Shown in pieces: positions 6,775 to 24,401 of a stretch of DNA of 64,000 nt (positions are counted from its first letter, which is position 1; every line of letters begins with the position of its first letter). The DNA lies in assembly GCA_034531195.2 (NCBI GenBank), contig JAVRBO020000103.1, positions 16,744 to 80,743 on the forward strand, written 5' to 3'. The DNA comes from Nostoc sp. ChiSLP01 (lineage in GTDB: Bacteria; Cyanobacteriota; Cyanobacteriia; Cyanobacteriales; Nostocaceae). Position numbers and translations under genes: made by a program. Below the pieces are notes generated by a model, which worked only from the letters and a program-made list of their open reading frames with translations, was not told where the DNA came from and searched no databases.

Positions 6775-7626
6775 TTACTTTTTAGGAATCACGTTTCTGA
6801 TTCCACTTTTGGGAGAAACAGTATCACCTTTGTAACGGGGGATGATATGAATACTGGTGTGCATAATATTTTGCCCTGCTTCTCGATTTATGTTCATTCC
6901 TACATTAAAACCATTAGGCTCAAATTCAGTTTTGAGAATTTCTTGCACTTTATTTACCATAAACCAGCAAGCAGATTGTTCTTTAAATGGTAGTTCAAAG
7001 TAATTGCTAACATGACGTTTAGGGATAACTAAAACATGTCCTTTACTTATAGGATAGCCATCAAATATAGCGTAAGCTGTTGCTGATTCAGTTAAGAGTT
7101 TGAGATTTTTACGTGGATTACAAAATATACAATTATTAAATGAATTTTGCTGATGATTATAGTGAATATATTCATATACCTCCCGATGCTCATCTAAATA
7201 AAGTGAAGGAAAAGGAAGTTGCACGATACATTGATATGTAGGTTTTTTATGAACATAATGTTCGCGAAAACCTTCTTTTTTAATATCCCTTCTCACAACG
7301 TAATAAGCTTTACATCCAGCTTTTAATAAATGTGATATTTGCATCAGAATATTAGCTTGTTCTTCAGCAAATAAAACATTTAAAACATAAAAGCAAATTA
7401 TTGTATCAAATTTATTCTGAGGATATTCTGGAAAATAATAAGGATCGTAACCTGTAATATCACAGCCTTTTTGGCGTAAAATTTTCACATCATTACCAAA
7501 GCCACAACCAAAGTCTAGTATTTTCCCTTGCAGCAGATTTTGATTTAATAAAAACTGTGCTGGAAATGATAGATAAGTTCTTTCGATCGCAGTTAGATAG
7601 CTGAATTGATTTTTTTGCTGTTTCAT
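6775..7626 (-). CDS. fusion protein: class I SAM-dependent methyltransferase (N-terminal) + HIT-family domain (C-terminal)
   Basis: The N-terminal half has methyltransferase motif I ILDFGCGFGND and post-I GYDP. The C-terminal half is HIT-like (CIFCN...AIFDGYPISKGHVLVIPKRHV...GFNVGMNINREAGQNIMHTSIHIIPRYKGD). The triad reads H-T-S-I-H rather than H-x-H-x-H. Confidence 0.75.
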   Translation of the reverse strand: MKQQKNQFSYLTAIERTYLSFPAQFLLNQNLLQGKILDFGCGFGNDVKILRQKGCDITGYDPYYFPEYPQNKFDTIICFYVLNVLFAEEQANILMQISHLLKAGCKAYYVVRRDIKKEGFREHYVHKKPTYQCIVQLPFPSLYLDEHREVYEYIHYNHQQNSFNNCIFCNPRKNLKLLTESATAYAIFDGYPISKGHVLVIPKRHVSNYFELPFKEQSACWFMVNKVQEILKTEFEPNGFNVGMNINREAGQNIMHTSIHIIPRYKGDTVSPKSGIRNVIPKK

Positions 7627-12606: not shown

Positions 12607-13650
12607 GAGTAATAAAACCTATATCTTGGGACTAGCTGTAAACGGAATGAAATACACGTAGGAATAATATGGGAATCCGATTTGATTTGGAGAATCGCTC
12701 GTAAAAGAGAGGGAACGGGTAAAAAGGAATAAAGATGTACTAAGTTCTGTCGAAAAATCAAGTATGAATTCCATATCAAAATGATTCATTCCTTGTCTTT
12801 AGCGTCTACACTGAAATATAGGCTAAACACAAAGAAGCCACATTCTTAACAACAGTAACGTTTCACATTTCATCTGTCTACAGTTAGATTTCCTTAATAA
12901 TGCAAATTACAACCAATAAATCTCCATCAGATACAAATTGATACGATTTTTCTCCAATTTATTGCATACATCAGGACTGAGGTTTAAACGTGTATTGAGT
13001 CTGGTTATTAGCATTATGTTTTTGTGTTTGTCGCTGGTGAATGAAATTTGCAGTTTATCTTGCACCCACTCACCCATTGTGGAATAAAGAATATTTTCCA
13101 AACCTTGTTCGCTTTTCACGTCATCTCGAAAAATCCACGAAAAACCTAACCCTCTAACCTCTTTCCCGATGCGGGAAGGGGGAAAATTTAAAGTCTCTCT
13201 CTTTGCAGGAGAGAGATTTAGAGAGAGGTTTTCCAGATCCCGTGAAAAGTCAGCTAAACCTTAGACTTATTGCAGAAGTCGGGAAAAGGGGGTGCATGTT
13301 TGGTATTTTCCCTTTCCCCAATAAAGATGTATCCCTTTTCCCACAAGAGTGCAAAAAGTAATGAAAGCAAGAGGTCTCTTGTTATCCAGGCTTTAAACTG
13401 CAAACGTCGAGTTCTAAACTGCAAATGTCAAGGTTTTTTCTTGAAACTTCATAACTTTTTGTTCTTGTGCCAGAAGTGATATATTGGCACTTGAGCAAAA
13501 GAGGACAAGGGAAAGGGGAGAATTGAAAGGCGACAGCAAGAAAAAAGCCTTGTTCCAAATTGTACAATCCCTCGTCTTGTCTACGGTAGGCTCCCCGAAC
13601 ACACGTGAAATAATTTAAAAGGTTTGTATCGAGACACGTGGTGCTATACA

Positions 13651-14348
13651 TCAGGCGTTCATATTACAAGCTCTATCTTTAGATATGGGATTGTCACTTT
13701 AAACTCCATGCTGGCGATCGCCAAAGCACCGCAAAACGAAGTATACGACCTTTTGAGCGAACAACAGCGCCAGTTTCTAAATAATCTTTAAAATAGCGCC
13801 AAGAATCTCTTGGAATTAATCAACCCATCCTCGACCTAGCCAATATTAAATCTAAAAAAATGGAACTACAACTAGCTTCGATTTCAATTCAAGAATTATG
13901 TGACTCTTGTCTGAGCTTTGTTAAACCTTTAGCATTGCAAAAAAATATTCAGTTGAGCGTACAAATACCTGAAGAACTCGCACCCATCCAAGTTGATGAA
14001 GAGCGTATTCGAGAAGCGTTCATCAACCTGTTAAGCAACGCTGTTAAATATACTCCAGACGGGGGCAAAGTTTGGATTGAAATCCAACCACACCCCACAA
14101 AGAAATATATCTTTTTCAGCATCGTAGATACTGGCATTGGTATTCCTTCCGATGACCTGTTCCAATTATTTCAACCTTTAGAGCCGGATGAAAGTTCGCA
14201 CGCCCGTCGTTCTGCAAACACAGGTTTAGGATTACTAACTGTGCAAAGAATTGTAGAATCGCACGGTGGTAGCGTCCATGCTGAAAGTCAATTAGGCAAA
14301 GGCAGTAGATTCACAATCAAGCTTCCTTGGAAGAAGATGGGGGAGTAG
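13651..14348 (+). pseudogene. histidine kinase remnant (HisKA decayed, HATPase_c ORF intact)
   Basis: The 13860..14348 ORF is a complete HATPase_c domain (N-box NLLSNAVKYT, DTGIGI, GLGL). Upstream, HisKA-like sequence (..TLNSMLAIAKA..QQRQFLNNL*NSAKNLLELIN) carries an in-frame TAA at 13789-13791. A 1-nt deletion sits between LIN and ILDLANIKSKKMEL at about 13825. No sensor or N-terminal region is present, and the 5' limit is uncertain. Confidence 0.75.
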
Positions 14349-15322: not shown

Positions 15323-16480
15323 ATGCAGAGTATGTCAGATATAGTTACTAAAAAGTTGGGAAATTTTTTGCAAGAGATAGAACAGCGATCGCACTTTCAC
15401 GCCGGCTATCCATACAATTTAACTTGTGATTATAGTGAGATAGTTAAATCTTTTAATTACATGTTAAATAATGCTGGCGATCCCTACGTAGAGCCAGACT
15501 TTGGTCTACACTCTCGTCAATTTGAACAAGAAGTATTATCTTTTTTTGCTCAACTTTATAAGATTCCAGAATATAAATTTTGGGGTTATGTAACTGCTGG
15601 GGGAACTGAAGGAAATTTATATGGGATGTTTTTAGCAAGAGAAATTTATCCCAATGGAATTCTTTATTCATCACAAGACTCTCATTACTCAATTCCGAAA
15701 GCAGCTAGATTATTTCGCATCAAACATCAAGTTGTAGATTCGCAAATTAATGGTGAAATGGATTATGACCATTTTGCAGAACTAATTAGCCAAAATCGTG
15801 AGTATCCAGCGATAATAAATTTAAATATTGGCACTACTGTTAAAGGTGCGATCGATAACCTAGACAAAGTTATCGAAATCTTAGAGCGTTATCAAATTAA
15901 AAATTACTATATTCATTGTGATGCCGCGCTTTCAGGATTAATATTACCCTTTTTAGATGGCGCTCCTCAAGTTAATTTTCAAAAACCCATAGATAGCGTA
16001 GCCATTTCTGCTAAATTCATGGGTTCTCCATTGCCTTGTGGCGTCGTCTTAACTAAGAAGAAATGGGTAGAAAGAGTGGAAACAATGATTGAATATATTG
16101 GTTCCAAAGATACAACTATTCTCGGTTCTAGAAACGGCCATACTCCTTTAATTCTCTGGTATGCACTGCAAAGCAGAGGTTACAACGGCTTAGCCAGAGA
16201 AGCAAAGGCCTGTATTCAGAATGCTCAATATCTTTTTCAACAACTTCAATTGAGAGAATACCCATGTATGCTCAATAAGTTTTCTACTACTGTCGTGTTT
16301 AAAAAACCATCTCAAAAATTAATTAAAAAGTGGCAGTTAGCAAGTTTTGAGAATTGGGTACATATTGTAGTCATGCAGAATATCGATAGAGAAAAAATCG
16401 ATACTTTTATTGATGAGCTTGTTTTAGAACAAAGGTTGTTTGAGCAAGTACAAGATTTACAGCTACAGGCAGTCAGCTAA
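15323..16480 (+). CDS. hdc: PLP-dependent histidine decarboxylase family protein (group II decarboxylase)
   Basis: The 385-aa ORF is collinear with Gram-negative PLP-type HDC (HAGYPYNL.CDYSE, FEQEVLSFFAQLYKIP..FWGYVTAGGTEGNLYG, DSHYSIPKAARL, NIGTTVKGAIDN, HCDAALSGLILPF, GSRNGHTPLILW). The PLP-lysine region reads ISAKFMGSP. An alternative start is at 15332. Confidence 0.8.
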   Translation: MQSMSDIVTKKLGNFLQEIEQRSHFHAGYPYNLTCDYSEIVKSFNYMLNNAGDPYVEPDFGLHSRQFEQEVLSFFAQLYKIPEYKFWGYVTAGGTEGNLYGMFLAREIYPNGILYSSQDSHYSIPKAARLFRIKHQVVDSQINGEMDYDHFAELISQNREYPAIINLNIGTTVKGAIDNLDKVIEILERYQIKNYYIHCDAALSGLILPFLDGAPQVNFQKPIDSVAISAKFMGSPLPCGVVLTKKKWVERVETMIEYIGSKDTTILGSRNGHTPLILWYALQSRGYNGLAREAKACIQNAQYLFQQLQLREYPCMLNKFSTTVVFKKPSQKLIKKWQLASFENWVHIVVMQNIDREKIDTFIDELVLEQRLFEQVQDLQLQAVS

Positions 16481-16537
16481 ATTATTATAAGACATGGGGC
16501 ATTGGTAATTAGTTTTAGACTAATGACTAATAACAAT

Positions 16538-19500
16538 TTAGTTCCTTAAGAAGTCTTTGTAACAAAAGTTAGCGGCAAGTAATCTTTCTACTTCTCCACT
16601 TTGCATAGGTGGTAAGAAGAAATATCCTTGTCCATAATCACATTGCAATGCCTTAAGTTGTGCTAACTGCTCTACAGTTTCTATTCCTTCTGCTGTTACA
16701 GACATATTCAAATTATGAGCTAACGTAACAATCGCTCGCACAATTTCTAAATTTTCTCCTCGACTACCTATATTATTGACAAAAGAACGGTCAATCTTAA
16801 TAGTTTTTATTGGTAGCCGATGTAGATAATTCAAAGACGAATAGCCAGTACCAAAATCATCCATATGTAACTCCACATCCAGCGCAGTTAACTCGGAAAG
16901 TACAGTATTAGCTAATTCAAAATTATCCATCAACAAACTTTCAGTAATTTCCAATTTCAATCTACATGGCTCTAGCCCAGTTTGCTGTAAAATCTGTTTA
17001 ACTTGTTTAAAGATATCGGCTTGGGTAACCTGTTTACCAGAAAAATTGACGCTAATTGTCAAGTTTAACGAACTAGGAAATTGTTGATGCCATGTATGCA
17101 TTTGTTGGCACGCTTGATAAAGTACCCATTGCCCGATACTAACAATCATTCCAGTTTCTTCTGCCAAGGGAATAAAATCTTGAGGGGAAACAATTCCTCT
17201 TTCTGGATGATGCCAGCGTATCAATGCTTCAAATCCAATAATTTTGCCAGTTATCAGTGAAACAATTGGCTGATAGTAAAGGCGAAATTCCTCTTGCTTG
17301 AGCAGCAATGCATGTCGCAGAGCAGTTTCTAATTCTAAGAGCAAAGATGCACTCTCGTGCATTTTTTCATCAAACACCTCATAACGTGCTTTACCAAGTG
17401 CTTTAGCAGAGTACATTGCCACATCGGCATCGCGGATAATCTGCGCTGCTTGCTGATAATCTGCTTTACTCAAAGCAATACCGATACTAGCATTAGTGAA
17501 TACCCTATGTTCATTCAATTGAAATGGTAAAGCTAGTACCTTTTTAATACGTTCAGCTATTTGTGTAGCGGTGTCAACATCATCAATTTCTTCAATTAAA
17601 ATTGTGAACTCATCTCCACCAAAACGGGCAACTATATCTCCGTTTCGGACAACTGATTTGAGACGATGAGAAATTGCAATCAAAAGTTGATTTCCTAGTA
17701 GATGTCCCAGGCTATCATTTACGACTTTAAAGCGGTCTAAGTCTAAGAAAAGTACAGCAAATAAATAATTTTTTTCCTGTTTAGTACGTTCTATTGACTG
17801 CTGCACCCGCTCGATAAATAAACGTTGATTGGGTAACCCAGTTAGTCCATCATGAAGGCTATTATGTAGTAATTGTTCTTGTGCTTCTTGACGCTTGATA
17901 ATGTCTTGTTGGAGTTGTTGATTAACTCGAATAAGTTCAATGGTGCGTTCTAAAACTAGTTGCTCAAGCTGGCAACGGTATTGGACTAATTCTTCCTCTG
18001 CCAGCTTACGTTGAGTGATGTCGCGTACAATCACAACATACTCTCGTAGTTGGGGATTAAACGGTCGGGAAACGGTCGATTCAACAATTCGCAGACCTTG
18101 GTTGATTTTTAAAGTTTGTTCGCTTCTAATAGACCATTGCTCAGGTTTGCCGTGATAGCACATTAAGAGTTGATTTAAATTTTGCCCAAGCAATTGCTGA
18201 ATAGTCAATTCAAATAATTCTTCAGCAGCTGCATTTGTTTGACAAATCATACCGTTTTCATCTAAGACTAAAACAGTATCTGGAACTGTATCGAGAGTAG
18301 TGATAAATAAGTTTTTTGCTTGTTTGCGTGCCTCATCAATAGCAACAATTTGTGGTAGAGTTGTCCAACAGGCGATCGCCACTCCTGCAAAAGAAAGCGT
18401 TACTAGTAAAATCGCTAATAAAGAGTTATGACTATCATTAGTAACTTTGCCTAATAAATCCCGGATAAACCAACTACTTGTAGCAGTAATACAAATTAGC
18501 GATACTAAGACAATCACCTGTAATACAACAAAGTCTGAATTGTGTTTGCTAGACTTTCCATCATAAAAGTCTGTCCAAAATTTTGGATACAATGCTGCAA
18601 AACTTACGCGACTTAGTACTGCATTTCCTAACATCAAAAAAAACGGTAATGATAATCCAACTAAAAAATATTTCCAATTCCAAGCTAAACCTCCTACTAT
18701 TAGAACTATCGTTTCTACAAAGAAAAAGCTAAGTGACCACCAAGGCCATAAAACCTCCGGTTGACCTCGACACAACCATAATCCTAAATGTAGCCCCATA
18801 ATCGACAACAGATAACAAGTACCTGCCACGGTTACTAATTGAGATACATTTCCTAAATTTAAACAAAGCAGACTGAGGAGAAAGGCAACTAAAATTGCTG
18901 GCCCAAGAACGCCTTGACGAGAAACTACTGTAAATATCTCAGAAACATGTCCGTCTAAGGCAAGTTGATATAATACGCGAGGAGAATTAGAAACTGCCGT
19001 AGCAGAACTTAAAAGGCAAGATACAGTAATTAAAAGTGTTACTAAAAATGAGGCATATTTGCCCCAAAAATGTACAGAAGCTGCTAGCAAATTTAAAAAA
19101 GCATCGTCGCCTATTGTTCTATTTGGGGCGGAACACATTAATACCCAAGAACTACCTAAAAAAACCGGAGGAATTAAGTAAGCAGCCACCGTTAAAAACT
19201 TCAAAGTTTTATCTGGATTGTGGCTATCAGCAACAAAAGAAGAAGTAGTTTCACAAGCATAAATTGAATAGCTAGACAGGAAAAACCACTTTGCCCATTC
19301 TTGAAAGCTCAAGTCTATACTAATTGCAGGTAAGTTAAAACTAGTGCTTGAGAAAGTTAACCATACTAGACCTTGAATGCAAAATAAAAACAGTAATAAA
19401 ATCGCTGGTAATACAAAAAATAAGTGCAGTAGCGCTAAAGCACGACTACCACTGAATGCCACAATAAAAGGAATTGCTGTAAATACAACCTTTAAAAAAG

Positions 19501-19921
19501 TTTCCGGACAAACAATATCTAATGTTTGAAAATTGACTTTAATCAGATTTGTCAGAATAATTGCGTACAGTGCTGGTGCTGCTGCCCAGCTAAAAAAGTA
19601 TCCTAAAGCTACGTAACGGCCTAAGTAAGGAAAGTTTTTTAAGAGTCTTGTGGTATAGTTCGGTGTTCCTCCTGCAACATCTGACCAATGTCTTCCTAAA
19701 CTTTGTACCTGCAAATTAAGTAAAAAGGAGACGATTGTGCCAAATAACCAAACTAAGATAGCTTTAGACCCTAATGCTGCGTGAATAATCGTGGCAGTAC
19801 CAATCCATCCAACATGACCCGTCAACCCAAAACCCCAGGTTTCTAAATAACTCAGAGTACGCGGTAAACGCATTCGCAAGGGTTGGTTTTTCTCTGTCTG
19901 TAGAGAATCGTTACTAGTCAT
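16538..19921 (-). CDS. APC-superfamily transporter-like membrane domain fused to PAS, GGDEF and EAL domains
   Basis: Residues 1-520 are polytopic with APC-like motifs (GGTPNY, YACETTSSFVADSHNPDKT, SPRVLYQLALDG). A PAS domain follows (VLVLDENGMICQTNAAAEELF). The GGDEF domain is intact (RFGGDEFTIL) and so is the EAL domain (FEALIRWHHPERG, DDFGTGYSSL). Confidence 0.85.
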   Translation of the reverse strand: MTSNDSLQTEKNQPLRMRLPRTLSYLETWGFGLTGHVGWIGTATIIHAALGSKAILVWLFGTIVSFLLNLQVQSLGRHWSDVAGGTPNYTTRLLKNFPYLGRYVALGYFFSWAAAPALYAIILTNLIKVNFQTLDIVCPETFLKVVFTAIPFIVAFSGSRALALLHLFFVLPAILLLFLFCIQGLVWLTFSSTSFNLPAISIDLSFQEWAKWFFLSSYSIYACETTSSFVADSHNPDKTLKFLTVAAYLIPPVFLGSSWVLMCSAPNRTIGDDAFLNLLAASVHFWGKYASFLVTLLITVSCLLSSATAVSNSPRVLYQLALDGHVSEIFTVVSRQGVLGPAILVAFLLSLLCLNLGNVSQLVTVAGTCYLLSIMGLHLGLWLCRGQPEVLWPWWSLSFFFVETIVLIVGGLAWNWKYFLVGLSLPFFLMLGNAVLSRVSFAALYPKFWTDFYDGKSSKHNSDFVVLQVIVLVSLICITATSSWFIRDLLGKVTNDSHNSLLAILLVTLSFAGVAIACWTTLPQIVAIDEARKQAKNLFITTLDTVPDTVLVLDENGMICQTNAAAEELFELTIQQLLGQNLNQLLMCYHGKPEQWSIRSEQTLKINQGLRIVESTVSRPFNPQLREYVVIVRDITQRKLAEEELVQYRCQLEQLVLERTIELIRVNQQLQQDIIKRQEAQEQLLHNSLHDGLTGLPNQRLFIERVQQSIERTKQEKNYLFAVLFLDLDRFKVVNDSLGHLLGNQLLIAISHRLKSVVRNGDIVARFGGDEFTILIEEIDDVDTATQIAERIKKVLALPFQLNEHRVFTNASIGIALSKADYQQAAQIIRDADVAMYSAKALGKARYEVFDEKMHESASLLLELETALRHALLLKQEEFRLYYQPIVSLITGKIIGFEALIRWHHPERGIVSPQDFIPLAEETGMIVSIGQWVLYQACQQMHTWHQQFPSSLNLTISVNFSGKQVTQADIFKQVKQILQQTGLEPCRLKLEITESLLMDNFELANTVLSELTALDVELHMDDFGTGYSSLNYLHRLPIKTIKIDRSFVNNIGSRGENLEIVRAIVTLAHNLNMSVTAEGIETVEQLAQLKALQCDYGQGYFFLPPMQSGEVERLLAANFCYKDFLRN

Positions 19922-20071
19922 TGTTTCTTAGCTAGATTTACTGGCCTTTTCACTCAATAACTGAATCTAGCTATTATAGCTTCAGTATAAGTACTGGATT
20001 TGGCAAAATATAAGCTTAATTATTACCAAATTTTATTTTTTTATATATTATTTTTCTATATAAAAATCAGC

Positions 20072-20109
20072 AAAGAAAAATTCCCTAATTATTTGAAAAT
20101 TAGGGAATT
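20072..20109 (-). terminator. rho-independent terminator after the ParA-like gene
   Basis: A perfect 12-bp stem AATTCCCTAATT / AATTAGGGAATT with a 7-nt loop is followed by TTTTTCTTT on the minus strand. Confidence 0.75.
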
Positions 20110-20136
20110 TCGTTGTTTATGAATGATTACTTAAAG

Positions 20137-21021
20137 CTATAGTTTTTGCAATAACTCCTGAGTTAATTGAAAAAATGCTTTTGAACCAGGTGATTGAGGA
20201 GCATTTAAAACAGCTGGCATAAAACTATCAACAGCTTTAGCAACATTAACATCAACTGGTATTTGTACCTTACAAATTTTTTCAACACCGAAATCTTCAA
20301 CAACACGGTGCATCACTTGTTTATAATATCTACCAGTCAGTAGATTAGCACTAGACATACTAAAGACAATTCCTAGCATTTTTATATCTATCTTTGTTTC
20401 ATTTCCGTGGCTATCTTTTAATTGAGCAATCCGTCTTTCTAGTAGTTGAATACCCACTACAGACAAAGGTTCGGGTTTCGCAGGAAGTATGTAGAAATCG
20501 CTGGCAGCTAAAGCGCTACGGGTTAAAAGATTATAACCAGGGGCGCAATCAAGAAGGATAAAATCGTATTCTTGCCGCACAGGTTTTAAAATATTGTTTA
20601 TCAAAACTCTTTCAAAGCGATTCCAAATCGTTTCAAAGTCTTGTTCGCCTAAAGCAGTTGCTTGTTGATGCAGCATTTCTGACACAACAAATTCATCATA
20701 TAAATCGATATCTCCTGGTAATAAATCTAGTCCAGGAAGATTACAAACCTGGGAATGAATAATATCTTGAATTGTCAGCTTTGCTTCTGGTTCTGGATTG
20801 ATAACCTCATCTATGAGATATCTAAATGTCTTACTTTGTTTACGACGTTTAGCAAAATCTAATGGTGACATCAGACTAAGCGTGGCGCTAATCTGGCTGT
20901 CCAAATCAAGAACAAGCACCCGCTTGCCATGATTTTTAGCTAAACAGGTAGCTAAGTTGACAGTAAGGGTGGTTTTACCAACGCCACCTTTCATATTTGC
21001 AGTTGCAATTACATATCCCAT
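20137..21021 (-). CDS. ParA/MinD-family P-loop ATPase (orphan, no parB-like partner seen)
   Basis: It has the deviant Walker A NMKGGVGKTT, Walker A' LVLDLDSQ and Walker B FILLDCAPG. Total length is 294 aa. Confidence 0.85.
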   Translation of the reverse strand: MGYVIATANMKGGVGKTTLTVNLATCLAKNHGKRVLVLDLDSQISATLSLMSPLDFAKRRKQSKTFRYLIDEVINPEPEAKLTIQDIIHSQVCNLPGLDLLPGDIDLYDEFVVSEMLHQQATALGEQDFETIWNRFERVLINNILKPVRQEYDFILLDCAPGYNLLTRSALAASDFYILPAKPEPLSVVGIQLLERRIAQLKDSHGNETKIDIKMLGIVFSMSSANLLTGRYYKQVMHRVVEDFGVEKICKVQIPVDVNVAKAVDSFMPAVLNAPQSPGSKAFFQLTQELLQKL

Positions 21022-23751: not shown

Positions 23752-23828
23752 AGACTGGTCTGTTCTTTACGATATCCAGTCTACCTAGTTTTGTATACAC
23801 AACCTGTTTTTAACTCGAACTTGAGAAA

Positions 23829-24200
23829 TTAATCGCGGTCTTCGTCTTCATCGTCATCTCTGTGGCGATGTCTGTACTCGCGGTCTTCATCGTCGTCCTT
23901 GCGGCGATGTCTGTACTCGCGGTCTTCATCGTCGTCTTTGCGGCGATGTCTGTACTCGCGGTCTTCATCGTTGTCTTCGCTGCGATATCTGTAGCCATAG
24001 TCTTCGTCTTCTTCGTCTTCGCTGCGATATTTGTACTCGCGGTCTTCATCGTCGTCTTTGCGGCGATGTCTGTACTCGCGGTCTTCATCGTCGTCTTCGT
24101 CGCGATAACTATATTGGGTGCGATCGCGATTATCCCATTCTTCATCGCGTTGTTTCTGCTTGTTACCGACTATATTCTTAAACAAATCGCCTATTCCCAT
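23829..24200 (-). CDS. extremely charged Asp/Glu/Arg/Tyr repeat protein (hydrophilin-like, unknown function)
   Basis: A strong SD (AGGAGG) lies 8 nt before the ATG. The N-terminus is MGIGDLFKNIVGNKQKQ. About seven 13-aa repeats of KDDDEDREYRHRR follow (39-bp DNA unit). Other frames are open only because of the repeat. Confidence 0.6.
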   Translation of the reverse strand: MGIGDLFKNIVGNKQKQRDEEWDNRDRTQYSYRDEDDDEDREYRHRRKDDDEDREYKYRSEDEEDEDYGYRYRSEDNDEDREYRHRRKDDDEDREYRHRRKDDDEDREYRHRHRDDDEDEDRD

Positions 24201-24401
24201 AATTTTTTCCTCCTGAGGAAAGTGAATGCCCTAATCTAGGGTCACTTTTAGTAGTTTGTCTAATGCTTGTAGCAGATAAATCTTCCAGCGGGCGGAGATA
24301 AAAATAAAATTGCCCCTATCTTTGGAAGTGTAATAGGCTAATCTTAAAGGTTTTCTTAGATTCTGATTTCTGGATTTTGAATTCTCAATTCTTATTTACT
24401 T

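Follow-up and report, generated by a model that had tools for sequence, protein, structure and literature searches.

We analysed a stretch of 64,000 nucleotides from Nostoc sp. ChiSLP01 (contig JAVRBO020000103.1; the whole stretch is called the window in the following) with regard to two facing genes, one encoding a pyridoxal phosphate (PLP)-dependent decarboxylase and the other a fusion of an APC-transporter-like membrane module with PAS, GGDEF and EAL domains. Comparative evidence gives good support to the view that the fusion protein is a transporter-derived sensor acting on cyclic di-GMP (c-di-GMP), which is functionally tied to the decarboxylase. Going one step further, we consider it probable, at roughly 60%, that the two genes form a conserved unit in which a sensor of small amines, derived from a transporter, is tied to the decarboxylase and coupled to the turnover of c-di-GMP. 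In the literature searched, neither a family of receptors with the APC fold nor this Nostoc gene pair was found to be described. The features of the pair are as follows:

15323..16480, plus strand: gene of the PLP decarboxylase, 385 amino acids (open reading frame (ORF) call, Pfam, NCBIfam)
16481..16537: spacer of 57 nt between the facing stop codons of the convergent genes
16538..19921, minus strand: gene of the APC-PAS-GGDEF-EAL fusion, 1127 amino acids (ORF call, Pfam, NCBIfam)
18332..19921, minus strand: sensor input module, residues 1-530 (Pfam, structure model)
17912..18331, minus strand: cytoplasmic PAS domain, residues ~531-670, as a bridge between membrane module and catalytic domains
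17357..17911, minus strand: GGDEF diguanylate-cyclase domain, residues ~671-855
16538..17356, minus strand: EAL phosphodiesterase domain, residues ~856-1127

A first-pass annotation of the DNA had described an hdc-like gene that converges with an APC/PAS/GGDEF/EAL fusion at a distance of 57 nt, and both the coordinates and the domains proved to be exact. No terminator-like hairpin was detected in the spacer between positions 16481 and 16537.

For a survey of co-occurrence, one genome per species was scanned for the decarboxylase and each locus found was searched for the proteins of the window. Genomes of about 70 Nostocales species were found to encode the decarboxylase, which is 76-98% identical within Nostoc. 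The sensor gene lies within 10 kb of it in 68 of the 70 assessable Nostocales species loci (the exceptions are L067 and L070), which bears out the co-occurrence that had been proposed as a check on the initial idea. Within the same distance, a gene for a ParA-like ATPase was found in about 58 of the 70 loci, a GH65 hydrolase gene in 11 and a cytochrome b561 gene in nine; the latter two flanks are kept only in the closest relatives. The sensor gene is nearly always convergent with the decarboxylase gene and 60-400 nt away from it, apart from insertions of 1.4 and 3.2 kb in L065 and L068, respectively. Among the metagenome loci of the Nostoc type, six of seven contain the pair.

The pairing recurs in a different form in Aliterella atlantica, where an orthologous decarboxylase gene (71% identity) is divergent from the gene of a 987-amino-acid APC-PAS-PAS-histidine kinase, which is followed by a PatA-type regulator. 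This arrangement is also found in L072 and in the seven metagenome loci L105, L106, L109, L112, L114, L118 and L124. Moreover, in L150, L159 and L165 a paralogous decarboxylase (46-47% identity to that of the window, with YPY and a canonical SGHK motif) is located beside a paralogous APC-kinase, the module of which shows 49-51% identity. No genome was seen to combine the two pairs; Nostoc sp. C117 has a paralogous APC-kinase (P0071), but a decarboxylase does not adjoin it. In a neighbour-joining (NJ) tree of the module, the decarboxylase-linked kinase clade and the GGDEF-EAL clade of Nostoc are sisters, and the decarboxylase partners of these two sister clades alone share a deletion of the histidine in the SGHK motif. 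Because of the Aliterella-type pairing, the paralogous pair and the sister sensor clades with their shared change in the decarboxylase, the pairing appears to go beyond passive synteny.

The window decarboxylase belongs to the Pfam family Pyridoxal_deC and reaches 524.3 bits with the NCBIfam model NF002748 'histidine decarboxylase' (cut-off 305), and its orthologues are listed under this name in the source databases. Together with the conserved sensor pairing, this speaks for a reading in which the window protein is a genuine histidine decarboxylase (HDC) and the APC module, as a relative of the histidine/histamine antiporters, senses histidine or histamine and passes this on to c-di-GMP. We regard this reading as unlikely, and judging from its relatives and its active-site segments the window enzyme is probably not a true HDC. 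In the Protein Data Bank (PDB), it matches the alanine decarboxylase (AlaDC) of tea with 400 bits and the serine decarboxylase (SerDC) of Arabidopsis with 388 bits, and the bacterial HDC (7ERU/7ERV) with 318-319 bits. In an NJ tree of the decarboxylases, the cyanobacterial enzymes including that of the window cluster with the plant serine and alanine decarboxylases and not with the structurally characterised 7ERV, which groups with non-cyanobacterial loci labelled as HDC. The canonical cyanobacterial relatives of the window enzyme share 51-52% identity with the plant enzymes versus 43-44% with HDC.

The active-site segments point in the same direction. In the plant enzymes, the third residue of the YPX motif sets the substrate (Tyr111 in the serine enzyme, Phe106 in the alanine enzyme), and Tyr341 was found to be essential in the same structural study (PMC11407765). 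The window enzyme carries the serine determinant, since its motif reads GYPYNL (residues 28-33) as in the Arabidopsis enzyme (AtSerDC), versus GYPESA in bacterial HDC, and it keeps the equivalent of Tyr341 (IEYIGSKD aligned to VEYLASRD of 8JG7). YPY was present in 92 of the 121 decarboxylase sequences surveyed. The second segment reads GDPYVEPDFGLHSRQFE in the window enzyme, GDPFIESNYGVHSRPFE in AtSerDC and GDWAEYSNYLLNSFDFE in bacterial HDC; it fits the SerDC pattern GDP..E....HSR.FE and departs from the HDC pattern GDWAEY..LLNSFDFE. Thus, neither the HDC-type segments (GYPES.., GDW.EY and LLNSFDFE) nor the SGHK motif are found in the window enzyme, which by these features is a member of a cyanobacterial and plant clade of serine-decarboxylase-like enzymes. 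It is likely that the 'histidine decarboxylases' of cyanobacteria are systematically mis-annotated and are serine-decarboxylase-like.

The membrane proteins associated with these enzymes likewise fit poorly with histidine. In Fischerella PCC 9605 and Chroococcidiopsis CCMEE 29, canonical relatives of the decarboxylase adjoin a stand-alone permease, and these permeases score 341 and 378 bits with the ethanolamine permease model TIGR00908 (cut-off 382), versus only 44 and 26 bits with the model of the histidine-histamine antiporter. The module of the window shows no match to this antiporter model (TIGR04298) at E<=0.01, and its only NCBIfam match is NF053774, a trimethylamine N-oxide (TMAO) permease, with 32 bits. 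The first-pass annotation had suggested a phylogeny of hdc, and this separates the enzyme from the HDC 7ERV; the kinship of the module with the histidine/histamine antiporters, which it had implied, gives way to stand-alone relatives resembling TMAO and ethanolamine permeases. Its statement that hdc is not a standard cyanobacterial gene does not agree with the occurrence in about 70 Nostocales species, nor with a homology search that yielded 3444 homologues at E<=1e-10. Among the best 120 of these 3444, the organism-named ones are almost all from Nostoc or other cyanobacteria, and there is one eukaryotic row, Picochlorum. Of the original proposal, the transporter-derived ligand sensor coupled to c-di-GMP is thus upheld by the comparative evidence, whereas histidine or histamine as its ligand is not supported.

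A short-chain dehydrogenase gene is located directly 3' of the decarboxylase gene and on the same strand in L067 (11348-12112), L068 (11414-12178) and L085 (11148-11954), which represent two lineages of Nostoc as well as Aliterella; in the loci L067 and L068 it is followed by an ORF of 611-613 amino acids without any Pfam domain. As weak evidence, such a neighbour would fit an amino-alcohol product better than histamine.

The decarboxylases of the sensor-linked loci also have a remodelled PLP site. In the window enzyme, the motif around the PLP-binding lysine is atypical, with SA-K (VAISAKFMG, residues 226-234) instead of SGHK. This S[AG]-K form, in which the histidine of SGHK is deleted, occurs in all 75 retrieved homologues with at least 69% identity and in none below, and these 75 correspond exactly to the enzymes of the Nostoc and Aliterella types with sensor neighbours. 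The same clade, including the window enzyme, shows EPDFG where its relatives and SerDC read ESNYG. Below 69% identity, the homologues retain SGHK, except for a subgroup with YPL that has SAYK. As far as the alignment shows, the remaining residues of the PLP site have been kept, and conservation within the clade is high; we therefore expect that the window decarboxylase is active, presumably with a shifted specificity or regulation. A clade that lacks the near-universal histidine of the PLP-lysine motif should be of interest to PLP enzymology.

The subgroup with YPL and SAYK, where a tyrosine replaces the histidine before the PLP lysine, comprises P0204, P0210, P0211, P0213-P0215, P0220, P0221 and P0224-P0226 and represents a separate group of cyanobacterial decarboxylases with another non-canonical PLP motif.

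With respect to the membrane module, Pfam detects AA_permease_2 at residues 37-409 (49.2 bits, cut-off 27) and AA_permease (42.3 bits, cut-off 24.6). Since a single-sequence search of residues 1-530 against the PDB sequences gave no match and the profile of the module family reached only LysP (E=0.009), the fold was established by structure prediction. An AlphaFold2 model based on a 20-sequence alignment has a mean predicted local distance difference test score (pLDDT) of 83.4, a predicted TM-score (pTM) of 0.84 and about 14 transmembrane (TM) helices. With Foldseek, it matches LAT1, y+LAT1, SLC7A10, AdiC, ApcT, BasC, LysP and GadC with a probability of 1.00 at about 15% identity; against the solved APC transporters, E-values range from 5e-9 to 1e-6 and target-normalised TM-scores from 0.65 to 0.75. 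According to this model the module is an APC/LeuT-fold body, as the first-pass annotation had supposed. It is laid out as an APC core of 12 TM helices (residues ~20-440), followed by two extra TM helices (~458-520) that return the chain to the cytoplasm. Near-invariant signatures are located at the unwound positions of TM1 (WGFGLTGH, GGTPNY) and TM6 (YACETTSSFVADS..P.KT), and all motifs noted at first sight in the fusion protein are present (GGTPNY, ETTSSFVADSHNPDKT, SPRVLYQLALDG, GGDEF, EALIRW and DDFGTGYSS).

When the module profile was compared with 1.84 billion representative sequences, 406 matches at E<=1e-3 were obtained, 117 of them at E<=1e-30. Nearly all full-length matches are 640-1590 amino acids long, which implies that they carry fused outputs. 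Matches below about 150 bits are ordinary permeases of 440-490 amino acids, the best NCBIfam models of which are TMAO permease (131-322 bits) and then ethanolamine permease. The stand-alone permeases of Fischerella and Chroococcidiopsis were considered as ancestors of the module and rejected, as BLASTP detects no similarity between them and the module at 1e-3 and they are members of the ethanolamine-permease subfamily. Seven positions of the module (S111, I150, A222, F275, S301, S313 and Q336) are fixed in the decarboxylase-linked sensor clade and absent from its sister, A222 being located within the TM6 signature. We discarded an argument on ligand specificity from these residues, since they are too few and too conservative. 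Taken together, the SerDC-like features of the enzyme, the ethanolamine-permease-like neighbours of its relatives and the TMAO- and ethanolamine-permease-like relatives of the module suggest small amines as a common theme.

The tail of the fusion protein has intact catalytic motifs. Pfam and NCBIfam identify PAS at residues 539-640, GGDEF at 689-844 (157 bits) and EAL at 867-1105 (264 bits). Neither a HAMP nor a STAC domain was found in the fusion protein with Pfam, and the linker consists of the two TM helices and PAS. The GGDEF motif is intact at residue 768, and an RxxD I-site (RNGD at 759) precedes it by five residues, as aligned to 5M3C and MorA (4RNH). The EAL motifs EALIRW, SVNFS, EITES, DDFGTGYSS, KIDRSF, EGIET and GQGYF are all there. 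GGDEF is kept in 75 of 76 orthologues and RxxD in 76 of 76, while each EAL motif is kept in at least 74 of the 76 full-length orthologues, if I/L, S/T and Y/F variants are allowed; the intactness of both catalytic motifs, read from the window at the outset, therefore extends to the orthologues. Of the 77 loci that could be assessed, 75 contain a full-length sensor gene.

A frameshift divides the sensor gene in two loci, namely in a Nostoc metagenome-assembled genome (L001, 10001-13382) and in an independent assembly that is probably from the same sample (L002, 5878-9259). The products are an 878-amino-acid APC-PAS-GGDEF protein and an EAL protein of 265-273 amino acids.

A homology search with the module yielded 231 proteins, and every organism-named one is cyanobacterial. 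The outputs attached to the module are PAS with HisKA/HATPase in most cases, GGDEF-EAL, PAS alone and, in some rows, PF07228 (SpoIIE), where the output classes of the metagenome loci were assigned from histidine kinase and GGDEF/EAL references only. Since interchangeable outputs are found on one and the same module, it behaves as a sensor input.

A reverse flow of information is also conceivable, in which the APC body transports the substrate or product of the decarboxylase and the PAS-GGDEF-EAL part gates it under the control of a signal from the cytoplasm or of c-di-GMP itself. There is a precedent in the APC-fold K+ transporter KimA, which is gated by c-di-AMP and which, with bound c-di-AMP, is among the Foldseek matches of the module. 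The retained and invariant APC signatures of TM1 and TM6, the conserved I-site as a potential binder of c-di-GMP and the fact that a transporter belongs to the classic decarboxylase systems would likewise agree with it. However, the module also occurs on histidine kinases and SpoIIE domains, which are signal outputs and not regulators of transporters, its stand-alone versions are rare, its divergence from working transporters is extreme, as reflected by the PDB searches, and both catalytic domains have full active sites. On balance, we give this gating model slightly less credit than the histidine reading.

Returning to the small-amine sensor, its mode of action might be as follows. The APC/LeuT body would bind a small amine or an amino-acid precursor at the TM1/TM6 site, with translocation being optional, and the resulting conformational change would travel via the two extra helices (13-14) and the PAS domain. 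This would shift the balance between the GGDEF cyclase and the EAL phosphodiesterase and thereby set the level of c-di-GMP. The cytosolic PLP decarboxylase would make the sensed compound or consume its precursor. Because the enzyme is serine-decarboxylase-like with a remodelled PLP motif, ethanolamine or another small amine of this kind is a more likely candidate for this compound than histamine. Since the two genes are convergent in Nostoc, coupling should take place via a metabolite or via convergent transcription, and not via an operon. Downstream, motility by type IV pili or the behaviour of hormogonia would be a plausible target, because in the sister clade a kinase and a PatA-type regulator form the output. 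The motor of the type IV pilus is a site of action of PATAN-domain regulators (10.1101/2021.06.11.447907; PMC11181946), and in Thermosynechococcus the direction of phototaxis is switched by c-di-GMP (PMC9090330).

Several observations weigh against this proposal. The convergent orientation means that the Nostoc pair is not co-transcribed, and the pairing is broken in L067, L070 and L101. There is no decarboxylase within 6-8 kb of the kinases of the Synechocystis sp. PCC 7509 type (62-63% identity), of a second GGDEF-EAL group (60-63%), or of a third GGDEF-EAL group (57-58%) and about 45 more distant kinases. The decarboxylase pairing is clade-specific and not family-wide. In addition, the identity of the window enzyme to plant SerDC and AlaDC (46-47%) exceeds that to HDC (43.5%) by a small margin, and the trees of the decarboxylase and of the sensor module are both NJ trees without support values. 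The specificity of the enzyme may differ from both SerDC and HDC in view of the lost histidine and the altered EPDFG segment. With regard to the role of the product, cyanobacteria are not known to require ethanolamine for their phospholipids.

The third alternative, by which the adjacency is an inherited gene order without function, the sensor ligand is unrelated and the decarboxylase serves ordinary metabolism, would agree with the separate transcription of the convergent genes, the mostly unlinked wider sensor family, the three loci without pairing and an evidence that comes mostly from one genus, but it is the least probable of all, since the outer flanks turn over while the sensor stays, the pairing recurs in another order with a different orientation and output (nine loci of the Aliterella type) and once more in the paralogous pair, and the decarboxylase clade with the histidine deletion coincides exactly with the sensor-linked clade.

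If the small-amine sensor is accepted, a wider picture can be drawn, which we offer as a tentative and rather doubtful extension. In this picture, cyanobacteria-specific APC-fold receptors have co-evolved with a remodelled decarboxylase, and an ethanolamine-like signal made by the cell itself sets c-di-GMP in Nostoc, or drives a PatA-type regulator in cyanobacteria of the Aliterella type, and thus controls type IV pili. If true, an amine read back by the producing cell would be an autocrine or quorum-like signal in cyanobacteria, the pilus behaviours affected would be hormogonium motility or symbiotic colonisation, and the family would be the first of bacterial APC-fold receptors with a defined source of the ligand. 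The receptor family is small, sharply bounded and apparently restricted to cyanobacteria, as all organism-named members are from this group, whose motility, development and symbiosis are under the control of c-di-GMP and of PatA-type regulators. For one of its clades, the co-inherited decarboxylase provides a built-in clue to the ligand and makes an orphan c-di-GMP input of Nostoc testable with a short list of candidates.

Among the systems already known, the following come closest. Sd-Amt1 of Shewanella denitrificans (Amt-HAMP-GGDEF) and Ks-Amt5 (Amt-kinase) are receptors with the fold of ammonium transporters (PMC11152129). As in the present locus, a complete transporter fold serves as ligand-binding input, is fused to a cytoplasmic GGDEF domain or kinase and is combined with outputs that vary within the family; we also count it as a likeness that the ligand is a small nitrogen compound. 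They differ by the Amt/Rh fold (11 TM helices, trimeric) and the HAMP linker, as opposed to the APC/LeuT fold and the two TM helices with PAS, and they possess neither EAL nor an enzyme next door that is dedicated to ligand production. CbrA and CrbS consist of an SLC5 (sodium-solute symporter, SSS) domain, STAC and a histidine kinase (PMC5715377, PMC8871633). They resemble the family described here in carrying a LeuT-fold transporter domain on a sensor kinase, which acts as sensor or transceptor. In contrast, their transporter domain is of the SSS/SLC5 type and not APC/SLC7-like, the linker is STAC, the proteins are proteobacterial and no output other than a kinase occurs.

LysP of E. coli is an APC permease that acts as co-sensor of lysine in the control of a pathway built on an amino-acid decarboxylase, and it is the only solved structure that was reached by the profile of the module family. 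Unlike the module, which carries c-di-GMP enzymes or a kinase on the same chain, LysP is a working transporter that contacts a separate ToxR-like regulator. The pathway in question is the cadBA/CadC system (PMC3096576). On the side of the enzyme, AtSerDC and CsAlaDC (8JG7, 8JIK; PMC11407765) are the closest solved relatives, with YPY, the Tyr341 equivalent and the HSR segment being shared; SGHK with its histidine and ESNYG distinguish AtSerDC from the His-less motif and EPDFG of the window enzyme and the sensor-linked clade. The bacterial group II HDC with its antiporter HdcP (7ERU/7ERV; NF002748, TIGR04298) resembles the locus in the PLP fold-type I group II superfamily, in a decarboxylase beside an APC-fold membrane protein and in the NF002748 score of the window enzyme above the cut-off. 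HDC differs by GYPESA, GDWAEY, LLNSFDFE and SGHK and by its separate NJ clade, and an HdcP-type antiporter is not the membrane partner at the locus. Overall, the APC fold, the linker of a TM pair and PAS, the bifunctional GGDEF-EAL tail and the co-inherited, putatively ligand-related enzyme would set the locus apart from the known receptors.

A third gene accompanies the pair:

20137..21021, minus strand: ParA/MinD-like P-loop ATPase gene, upstream of the sensor gene

It stays by the pair even where the outer flanks differ (L001), and it is 96-100% identical, compared with about 80% for the neighbours. A hairpin at 20077-20111 (palindrome of 13-14 bp) separates it from the sensor gene, and it is therefore probably transcribed separately. 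Whether the ATPase is part of the functional unit is uncertain.

The closest relatives of the window are Nostoc paludosum FACHB-159 (98%), Nostoc sp. ATCC 43529 and N. linckia NIES-25. The region 15323-21021 has a GC content of 36.4%, compared with 41.4% for the whole window, which is about 2.8 standard deviations (SD) below windows of the same size, and the GC content at third codon positions (GC3) of the genes for decarboxylase, sensor and ATPase is 0.25-0.28, compared with a mean of 0.356 (SD 0.061). The AT-richness that the first-pass annotation had suspected by eye, and had proposed to check by GC and codon usage, is hence real, if moderate. The foreign origin it hinted at is not supported, as the decarboxylase is widespread in the genus together with its conserved partner. 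Nor is recent horizontal transfer supported as cause of the low GC content, given about 70 Nostocales species with the conserved pair, a GC3 that is off by only 1.3-1.8 SD and the frequent occurrence of the decarboxylase gene among cyanobacteria; an old acquisition of the pair is conceivable. A link to siderophore pathways had also been raised. No genes for siderophores or nonribosomal peptide synthetases (NRPS) adjoin the pair, either in the window or at those Nostoc loci that were sampled, and an NRPS-like gene precedes only the unlinked sensor of the PCC 7509 type.

The latter sensor, an APC-PAS-kinase with 62% identity in Synechocystis sp. PCC 7509 (L086, 5534-12661), is the closest one without a link to a decarboxylase. 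Its gene starts 9 nt after an NRPS-like gene of 1485 amino acids with AMP-binding, methyltransferase, PP-binding and terminal NAD_binding_4 reductase domains. This neighbour suggests a different ligand-producing partner for the PCC 7509-type clade. Histidine kinases with dCache_1 and HAMP domains were found beside or near the decarboxylase in UBA12227 (L090, 11247-14468) and in Nostoc sp. C117 (L173, 1894-4098), in the latter together with a nearby gene of the histone-deacetylase family (PF00850). Possibly, these are further genes of amine-related sensing.

Some minor observations concern other parts of the window. The ORF at 6778-7626 on the minus strand has the lowest GC content of the window (0.318; GC3 0.208), even below the genes for decarboxylase and sensor, and its syntenic gene in L003 encodes a protein with methyltransferase and HIT/DcpS_C domains. 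A remnant of a histidine kinase gene is located at 13624-14348 on the plus strand, where the start of an H-box ('EQQRQFLNNL') lies in another frame ahead of an ORF that encodes HATPase_c only (13860..14348). It is confined to the closest relatives (L005-L013 and L069; 77-95% identity), and in slightly more distant Nostoc it is absent and the GH65 gene is located nearer to the decarboxylase gene. Finally, tandem repeats at 23810-24239 (e.g. TTMKTASTDIAAK and DDDEDREYRHRRK) give rise to long overlapping ORFs on both strands.

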